This document shows positions 2,782-16,140 of a DNA stretch of 16,784 bases, in pieces. Every line of letters starts with the position of its first letter. Position 1 is the first letter of the stretch. The stretch is from Candidatus Jordarchaeales archaeon (GTDB taxonomy: Archaea; Asgardarchaeota; Jordiarchaeia; Jordiarchaeales; Freyrarchaeaceae): positions 1 through 16,784 of the forward strand of contig JAWCFL010000036.1 in NCBI GenBank assembly GCA_038858525.1. The letters run 5' to 3'. The translations under genes and the position numbers were made by a program. The notes under the pieces are model-generated. The model did no database searches. It was not told the DNA's origin and saw only the letters and a list, made by a program, of their open reading frames with translations.

Positions 2782-3819
2782 TTGGAGAGTATGTTAGGGA
2801 AGGGAGCCTCTTTGAGCCAAAGGCAAACACGAAAGCTCGTGAAATGGGGGAGTAGTAACACACTAGTTATGAGCTTACCTAGAGAGTGGACGAAGAAGAA
2901 CAAGCTTACTTCAAATGACGAAGTACAAGTTGTGGAGAACCCCGATGGAACTCTACTAGTTATACCCTCCCCTGAGGCGGCCCCCGAACAAGCTTCGACG
3001 GCAACTGTAGACATCCAGAAGTATCCTAACTTTGAACATTTAAAATACGTGATCGAGACTAAATACCTTAGCGGCTTTGATATTATTAATATCATCTCCA
3101 AGCAACCGTTCACTAGCGAGAAATACGGTTACATATCAGAGGTTGCACATCAGCTTTTAGGTTTTGAGATAACAAGCAAGACGCCAAACCAAGTTACACT
3201 GCAAGACGTTATGTCCATCCAGCAGACGAACATAATACTTTTAATACGTGTTCTTAGCAGAAACGTGCTTGAACTCATGGAGGAGCTAATTAACGCACTT
3301 CGAAAGAAGGATCTGAGAGTTATAGACGCGATACTTCAAGCGAGAAATAACATAAATAGATATTACCTTAGAATAGTGCGGCAACTCAGAAAGGGACTTC
3401 AGCAGTCGTTTCTGCTCGTCCAAATGGGAGTCACAGTACAGGACACGATAGACATGGTGACATATGTAACAGCCCTTAACGATGTAGCCGGAAACATAGA
3501 GGCGATGTGCAGGGCAATGCAAAGGTATCCTCACTCAGAGGAGGGACAACTAAAGGAAGTTGCGGAGACCCTTCAAAGAATATATGAGCTGCTACAACAA
3601 GCTACACGCTCCTTTCTTTTCAAAAAGGAACAAGACGCCATCGAAGTTCTAACAGTAATACCAAAAATAATAGGAGATAAAAGGGAGCTCGAAGTTAAGC
3701 TAAATAAGCAGATACCTACTCCAGAAGGGTTGCTACTTCAAATAGTCCTTGATGCAGGAGAAAAAATCGTAGAGGCGATGAGAAATATAGCTCAAGCTGC
3801 GCTCAGAAGGGCACTTTAA
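2782..3819 (+). CDS. phoU: Archaeal PhoU-family regulator with an N-terminal AbrB/SpoVT-like DNA-binding domain (COG0704)
   Basis: N-terminal RKLVKWGSSNTLVMSLPREW...GTLLVIP AbrB signature, followed by KYLSGFDII, EIT and two helical PhoU repeats. The start may be ATG 2791. Confidence 0.85.
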   Translation: MESMLGKGASLSQRQTRKLVKWGSSNTLVMSLPREWTKKNKLTSNDEVQVVENPDGTLLVIPSPEAAPEQASTATVDIQKYPNFEHLKYVIETKYLSGFDIINIISKQPFTSEKYGYISEVAHQLLGFEITSKTPNQVTLQDVMSIQQTNIILLIRVLSRNVLELMEELINALRKKDLRVIDAILQARNNINRYYLRIVRQLRKGLQQSFLLVQMGVTVQDTIDMVTYVTALNDVAGNIEAMCRAMQRYPHSEEGQLKEVAETLQRIYELLQQATRSFLFKKEQDAIEVLTVIPKIIGDKRELEVKLNKQIPTPEGLLLQIVLDAGEKIVEAMRNIAQAALRRAL

Positions 3820-12601: not shown

Positions 12602-12998
12602 GGCGGCGTGCCAGGAGTAATCCATCTTCTGTTGGGAGACCGTTGTTACCAACGGCCTCTTGGCGGCATTCGGCTATGCGCCCTACCCGCCGCCTCCCGT
12701 GGGCGTCATCGGCAGCCTATTTGGGCTTGCACCCCCGAGGATGGCCGTTTCAACGGTCCCACCTGCATCCTCAGCGGGTTATCTCGGCGCTTGTCGCCAA
12801 GCGCCTTCTCGGGAGCCCCTCAGCCGCTTCATCGTCATCCCGCAAGTGGACGTGTCGTTTGCAGCCTTTTCACCGGTTTCTGCTCCAGAGCCAAGCCTCT
12901 CGGCTTGCGCCTCGCGGCGCTCGGGTCCCACGATGGTGGATGGAATTTCCTCAGCGCTCTATTGGAGCGCCGTGAGCCGCCCTCTGGCTCGCCGCCTC
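12600..12998 (-). ncRNA. rnpB: RNase P RNA, archaeal type A, about 399 nt
   Basis: GC-rich island. On the minus strand: P1 GAGGCGGCGAGCCAG/CUGGCACGCCGCCUC; P2 GGCGGC/GCCGCC; P3 GCGCUC/GAGCGC; P4 GAGGAAAUUCCAUC with AACAGAAGAUGGAUUA; P8 GCGCC-GCGA-GGCGC; P9 AAGCC-GAGA-GGCUU; CR motifs AGCAGAAAC and UGAAACGG; GCAAGCCCAAAUAGG; P6 CGUGGG/CCCACG; L15 GGUA; P19 GAGGCCGUUG-GUAA-CAACGGUCUC. Confidence 0.97.
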
Positions 12999-15360: not shown

Positions 15361-15836
15361 TCCTCCAACCCCAAATTAAACAATTTTTCCGTTCAAGCAA
15401 CCAATGAGGAAGCATGAGAAACTAAAAAAAGGTTTCCTGCCAGCTTATTCAAAAGAGCTTATACTAAACAACCCCAGCTATTTTAAGATGGAATAAAACG
15501 ACGCATATAAAGGTTTTCATGAGTAAACCACTAAATTCGCCTTAGCCAAAAGAAAGTTGCATATCAATATTTTGAGCCAAGAGCTTGCATGCCATTTTAT
15601 CTCCTTTAATGCAGCTTTTATTTTGCCAGAACTGTTCAGGTGTGTCAAAAAGGGGCCTTAGATTTTTGACGGTTAAAACCAGAATAAGGATTGGTTTTGC
15701 TGTTCCTGAAGGACATTAAAAGAGATAAAAATAAAAGAGTGAAGCAAAAAGCCGGCTATCTTGCAAAGGTTGGTTTTAAGCATTACGAAGTTTAGATACG
15801 TAAAGTTCAAATAAATCAAAGGCCAAAGGAGTAATT

Positions 15837-16140
15837 GGGCTCCCTTATCGAGGACTGGGCCGACTGCCCAAGCGGGGTGGATGAGGCTTGGAGCAAGGAG
15901 GGAGCTACATTATTGGGGGAGACCGCCGCGCAAAACCCTACTTGAACGGACTTTCACCGAGAAAAAGGGAAGGTATAAAACTTCCGGGATGAGGTGGAGT
16001 TTACCCAAGTAGGGGACAGCGGCTTAGAAACGCCAGGTATGGCTCCCGGGTTTGAGAGCATGGTTGAGGGGGGCGAATGCTCCACTATGAAACCATGTGT
16101 TAGTTACCTCGGGAACACTGGCGTTTCTCCCCCTAATGTT
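15837..16140 (+). ncRNA. Three-hairpin box H/ACA pseudouridylation guide RNA (predicted)
   Basis: Three stem-pocket-stem-K-turn units. ACA boxes lie at 15907-15909, 16016-16018 and 16115-16117, which is 14, 15 and 16 nt from the 3' pocket start. The G-U pairs are consistent only with the + strand. Folded by eye. Confidence 0.8.

Follow-up and report, generated by a model that had tools for sequence, protein, structure and literature searches.

Helix 69 of the 23S rRNA is a key bridge between the ribosomal subunits and touches the tRNAs. The window analysed in this study, a stretch of 16,784 nucleotides from Candidatus Jordarchaeales archaeon (assembly GCA_038858525.1, contig JAWCFL010000036.1), carries near its end a small RNA whose third hairpin has a pocket complementary to this helix. 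Which uridines of helix 69 does the pocket serve? The original prediction, based on the sequence and an assumed archaeal consensus of helix 69, offered two pairing registers, namely register A, presenting U1917, and register B, presenting U1921, which we take to be equivalent to yeast position 2264. It left a choice between one pocket serving two sites and a eukaryote-like helix 69 in this lineage, two alternatives that are not exclusive. All the sequence words it quoted are found where it placed them, and the claimed spacings to the ACA box, 14 nt for an arm from 16101 and 16 nt for one from 16099, are correct. Our analysis indicates that one pocket probably does serve two sites, but covariation best supports U1915 as the partner of U1917, in place of the U1921 first proposed.

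The guide RNA and its genomic context

A search with the HgcG family (Rfam RF00064) gave a match at 15786-16122 with an E value of 1.2e-4 and 28.6 bits, below the gathering score of 77. The RNA folds into three hairpins (folding z=-5.3) and is kept across the genus, family and order; its three motifs occur in the HgcG/Pab40 order, and the pockets of motifs 1 and 3 are conserved. By architecture and targets it is an HgcG/Pab40 orthologue, though not a formal Rfam member. The gene downstream of it has its nearest relatives in Jordarchaeia genomes, and the host is therefore an Asgard archaeon. The coordinates of the features are collected in Table 1.

The pocket of hairpin 1 fits the 23S uridine that is presumably the equivalent of E. 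coli 2496. Orthologues of hairpin 2 point to the U2585/U2586 region; our pairing analysis of hairpin 2 in this RNA gave no clean canonical target. Its 3' arm reads UACCCA here and AACCCA in genome G004 and family f3, a difference that might move the U2585/U2586 target or make its pairing weaker.

The 23S gene was not found in this genome's assembly and falls in an assembly gap. In two relatives the guide gene lies about 3.6 kb upstream of the 23S gene, which here would be beyond the end of the contig, and contig C11 of this assembly begins with sequence that in a congener comes after the 23S gene. The two genes are at most about 4 kb apart in four genomes of the host order (L042, L044, L068 and L072), the guide coming before the 23S gene in the host family and after it in the sister family; the 16S gene is unlinked. 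The window also encodes an archaeal RNase P RNA at 12606-12992 on the minus strand (174.6 bits). The genome has cbf5, identified by a TIGR00425 match over the cut-off and interrupted by a bulge-helix-bulge intron. [quoted passage not shown]

Table 1. Features of the guide RNA gene and of hairpin 3 (positions in the window)
Feature	Position	Strand	Evidence or remark
TATA-like box of the sRNA gene	15806..15813	+	identical word 5' of the RNA in three relatives; putative function
Three-hairpin box H/ACA sRNA, HgcG/Pab40 orthologue	15836..16135 (ends approximate)	+	RF00064 match, folding, conservation
Hairpin 1	15838..15909	+	best site in congener 23S (8+5 bp, -22.7 kcal/mol)
Hairpin 2, ACA at 16016-18	15936..16018	+	fold and alignment
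Outer helix enclosing hairpin 3 and its ACA	16027..16127 (16027-36 with 16118-27)	+	fold; complementary flanks in orthologues
Lower stem P1, hairpin 3	16044..16114 (16044-51 with 16106-14)	+	includes the GGGU of register A
Candidate 5' arm of a third register (B), facing 1923-1929 with U1921 as target	16051..16057	+	7 bp here; 5 bp and 4 bp, respectively, in two family members
5' guide arm GAGAG, predicted to pair with 1920-1924 (or 16054-56 with 1920-22)	16054..16058	+	common to the 1915 and 1917 registers
Upper stem P2 and K-turn	16059..16097 (16059-65 with 16091-97; GA 16066-67, GA 16089-90)	+	
3' arm GUUA, predicted to pair with 1911-1914 and present U1915, 16 nt from ACA	16099..16102	+	homologous to Pab40 motif 3 arm
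Shifted 3' arm AGUUAC, predicted to pair with 1910-1915 and present U1917	16102..16107	+	6 Watson-Crick pairs
ACA box, hairpin 3	16115..16117	+	sequence; nearly invariant in alignment

Hairpin 3 is a conserved box H/ACA hairpin

Hairpin 3 has the stem-pocket-stem form of archaeal box H/ACA hairpins. Its upper stem stands 16 nt from the ACA box, at the upper edge of the 14-16 nt range; the spacing is 14-15 nt in productive Pyrococcus folds (PMC4652768). The K-turn lies 10 layers above the pocket, counting the 7 bp of P2 and G16058-U16098, and 10 layers is the productive upper-stem length (PMC4652768). The C16059-G16097 pair is invariant (44/44), the P2 stem covaries strongly, and in the covariance model the upper stem is 87% paired across 42 orthologues with 83 compensatory cells. 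That model found matches in 109 of 151 Asgard genomes, with a single match in this genome; a further candidate in G025, which this model does not recover, is not the orthologue and was left out. A metagenome scan added one further host-family member, near-identical to the one in G004. Matched against the 23S rRNA of a congener, since the genome's own 23S gene is unassembled, the pocket provides a bipartite complement around a uridine.

Helix 69 of the host lineage is eukaryote-like

Helix 69 is identical in two congeners and one family member, with A1909, C1916, G1918 and U1921, which suggests that this genome also has A1909-U1921 and C1916. The archaeal consensus used in the original prediction is therefore not the target sequence of this lineage. 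The Rfam archaeal consensus has G1909-C1921 where the Asgard relatives have A-U. Human position 3747, the equivalent of 1921, is U (PMC8763049). Yeast has A at 1909 (PMC2584109). The idea of a eukaryote-like helix 69 thus stood, but not as a peculiarity of this lineage: U1921 occurs in 44 of the 47 Asgard helices read, and the eukaryote-like form is a general Asgard trait.

The helix repeats itself, with UAAC at 1911, URAC at 1917 and a run of CU dinucleotides from 1920. Family f7 differs in having C1910-G1920, a C1920G change. In several Asgard 23S genes the helix 69 3' strand is interrupted by insertions that follow 1924 or 1928 and adjoin the guide-binding site (L004, L008, L013, L014, L102, L106, L109 and L110); these are likely introns.

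Covariation supports a register presenting U1915 and U1917

We scored 81 orthologues from 20 families, 43 of them with their own rRNA and the other 38 against the helix 69 of their family or the common one; a register passed with at least 3 bp per arm and at least 8 bp in total. The register presenting U1915 passed in 78/81 orthologues (41/43 with their own rRNA), and the one presenting U1917 in 69/81 (34/43). Both share the 5' arm. U1917 would generally be presented by a shifted 3' fit of UAGU on 1913-16; in the host family the longer AGUUAC is identical in all five members. In this conserved register U1921 is paired and not presented.

The position of the 5' arm is supported by one compensatory change. 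Guide position 16056 and rRNA position 1920 form G-C in 29 genomes and C-G in 13, with one C-U exception, genome G077. The change took place in family f7 (18 genomes), where 13 of the 14 genomes with their own rRNA combine G1920 with a guide C at 16056. It keeps the arm on 1920-1924 and abolishes register B in all 18 f7 genomes. This decisive covariation goes back to a single evolutionary event, and in one genome the rRNA change is uncompensated. In that exception (L145), the rRNA has A1910-U1920 and the guide still has C at the position facing 1920.

In most Asgard orthologues GAGAG stands at the positions of 16052-56. The host family has lost GA at 16052-53; its GAGAG lies directly against the upper stem, and 1920-1924 pair with 16054-58; a contraction of the GA repeat behind the shifted GAGAG would account for this. 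Because the ancestral GA was lost, the 5' arm here needs G16058-U16098 to be opened to reach 5 bp, or else is limited to 3 bp. Five target bases stay unpaired in the 1915 register, against four in Haloferax. Arms in other lineages lend the conserved register independent support: the 5' arm reaches 7 Watson-Crick pairs in f12, provided that f12 has the common helix, the 3' arm reaches 6 bp on 1909-14 in f15, and G013, whose helix 69 differs, has a 5' arm matching 1917-1924 in a canonical 1915 register. The 1917 arm was independently lengthened to 6-9 bp in f19.

Together, hairpin 3 has two alternative pairings around one anchor arm, conserved in evolution, as in the dual-guide pocket of sR-h45 SL2. 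We therefore favour, as the probable reading, that hairpin 3 is a dual pocket directing pseudouridines 1915 and 1917 of helix 69, like its Haloferax counterpart. L7Ae would bind the K-turn and Cbf5 the ACA box, as established for this guide family. The GAGAG arm would anchor on 1920-1924 and hold U1921 paired, while GUUA on 1911-14 would present U1915; a 2-nt shift of the 3' strand would then present U1917, 14 nt from the ACA box. In the host family C1916 of the rRNA breaks the pair beside U1917, and the shifted arm has grown to six pairs. Both modifications and their order are predictions from sequence comparison.

Alternative readings of the pocket

Register A, with its 10-bp 3' arm, its GGGU 5' arm and U1917 as target, is the reading in which we place least trust, and it was rejected as written. 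Its 14-nt spacing and six 3' Watson-Crick pairs hold, and GGGU is able to pair with 1919-22 in this genome. However, two mismatches arise with the congener target, 16101 with C1916 beside the target U and 16108 with A1909, and GGGU is the wrong arm, belonging as it does to the lower stem. Opening that stem costs 8.5 kcal/mol and leaves a net -5.0, the target U is away from the base of P2, and none of the 81 orthologues passes. Two further candidates were discarded, namely U1923 as target, where U16100 mismatches U1921, and U1915 with an arm from 16103, which starts only 12 nt from the ACA box. Alternatively, the pocket might make pseudouridine 1915 only, like motif 3 of Pab40, which gave no 1917-equivalent product in vitro (PMC2584109). 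Conservation is highest for the 1915 arm, the 1917 arm is missing in f3 and f15, and G16103 and U16104, paired in 33/44 and 31/44 orthologues, could also serve to close the lower stem. We nevertheless consider this improbable, given that the two groups with a changed rRNA 1916, the host family and f19, are precisely those with a longer 1917 arm, and that with the ACA spacing of 16-17 nt in most orthologues the shifted arm would start at 14-15 nt.

Register B requires more attention. It was confirmed and gains one pair over the original description (7+5 bp), as G16103 pairs with C1916. Its geometry is canonical, with an unpaired UN, a 10-layer stem and 16 nt to the ACA box, and no canonical match in the congener 23S and the genome's own 16S rRNA is better; it is equalled in 1.3% of shuffled rRNAs, a null that ignores the internal repeat of helix 69. 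Because of that repeat, register B of at least 8 bp passes in 63/63 orthologues outside f7. Every guide for 1915 will thus also show some match to 1921, and register B here is mostly such a shadow. The net nearest-neighbour energies (-10.0 kcal/mol for 1915, -12.2 for 1917 and -11.8 for 1921) do not separate the registers.

The host-family pocket might still use register B besides the other two, making pseudouridine 1921 as a third, eukaryote-type site. In addition to its textbook geometry and energy, register B reaches 9-12 bp in all five host-family members (12 bp here). However, 16052-53 are UU in three members and CU and CC in the other two, where the extension is broken, and G16054, a wobble in register B and a Watson-Crick pair in the conserved register, is G in 79/81 orthologues. 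An independent case comes from genome G014 of family f6, whose orthologue has UUUAAGAG 14 nt from the ACA box and replaces the wobble at 1926 by a Watson-Crick pair. As a 1921 guide it is predicted to form 7+4 bp, with G014's rRNA missing from the assembly; a search for a relative of G014 or a 23S gene of its lineage found none. The 5' arm of hairpin 3 at this locus (L162; G014 C15:21350-21430, minus strand) fits U1921 better than 1915/1917. Because the G014 orthologue resembles a good 1921 guide and the energies rank no register, a third site keeps a small share of the probability. We regard it as unlikely for the host family, and hardly less so in its wider form, in which one pocket also makes pseudouridine 1921 in the Jordarchaeaceae and independently in the G014 lineage, giving three helix 69 sites.

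It is very unlikely that the host-family pocket has been retargeted to U1921 alone, with 1915 and 1917 made otherwise or not at all. No register other than B is fully canonical in this genome, and in three of five family members B has a small stability advantage over the 1915 register. Against this, AGUUAC is invariant in the family yet useless to register B past its first two bases, and modification of 1915 and 1917 has been described for all domains of life (PMC7075261). A replacement 1915/1917 guide was not found in this genome, a weak result because the scan detects only hairpins with a two-sided K-turn and overlooked hairpins 1 and 2.

Relation to known guides

Motif 3 of Pab40/Pf7/Afu4 (RF00064; PMC2377435) is likewise the third hairpin of three, with the same upper-stem length to the K-turn, a GUUA arm on 1911-14 and 1915 as target, which Pab40 modifies in vitro (PMC2377435, PMC2584109) and which is predicted here. 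Pab40 differs in its canonical UN pocket at 14 nt, with no 1917 made, whereas the Asgard RNA has its 5' arm on 1920-24, a spacing of 16 nt and a 1917 arm.

The SL2 of Haloferax volcanii sR-h45, named a homologue of Pf7 stem III (PMC2584109), makes 1915 and 1917 sequentially from one pocket and tolerates UCUG (PMC7075261), the sequence found in the host-lineage target. The Asgard pocket is predicted to serve the same two sites across a similarly enlarged unpaired target loop, with five unpaired bases in place of four. The Haloferax RNA has two hairpins instead of three, and no 1921 register is described for it. Jady et al. explained such pockets by alternative pairings round a shared anchor (PMC8763049), a scheme that by analogy the Asgard pocket appears to fit. 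The 5' pocket of human SNORA53 also makes two helix 69 pseudouridines by alternative pairings 14 and 16 nt from the box (PMC8763049); its sites are 3747/3749 (1921/1923) in a eukaryotic RNA, and no homology is claimed. We found nothing on Asgard H/ACA guides or on archaeal pseudouridine 1921 in the literature searched, the coverage of which is incomplete.

Since the 1915/1917 dual pocket has already been demonstrated in Haloferax, the Asgard case is a useful extension and no surprise. If the favoured dual-pocket reading is true, such a pocket would be the common state across Asgard archaea and not a halophile oddity, and the covariation would fix the pairing register, bearing on the choice between a four-base loop (PMC7075261) and alternative pairings (PMC8763049). 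If 1921 is modified as well, the repeat in the target would have let a guide gain a eukaryote-type site, an archaeal case of a modification described only for eukaryotes in the literature searched.
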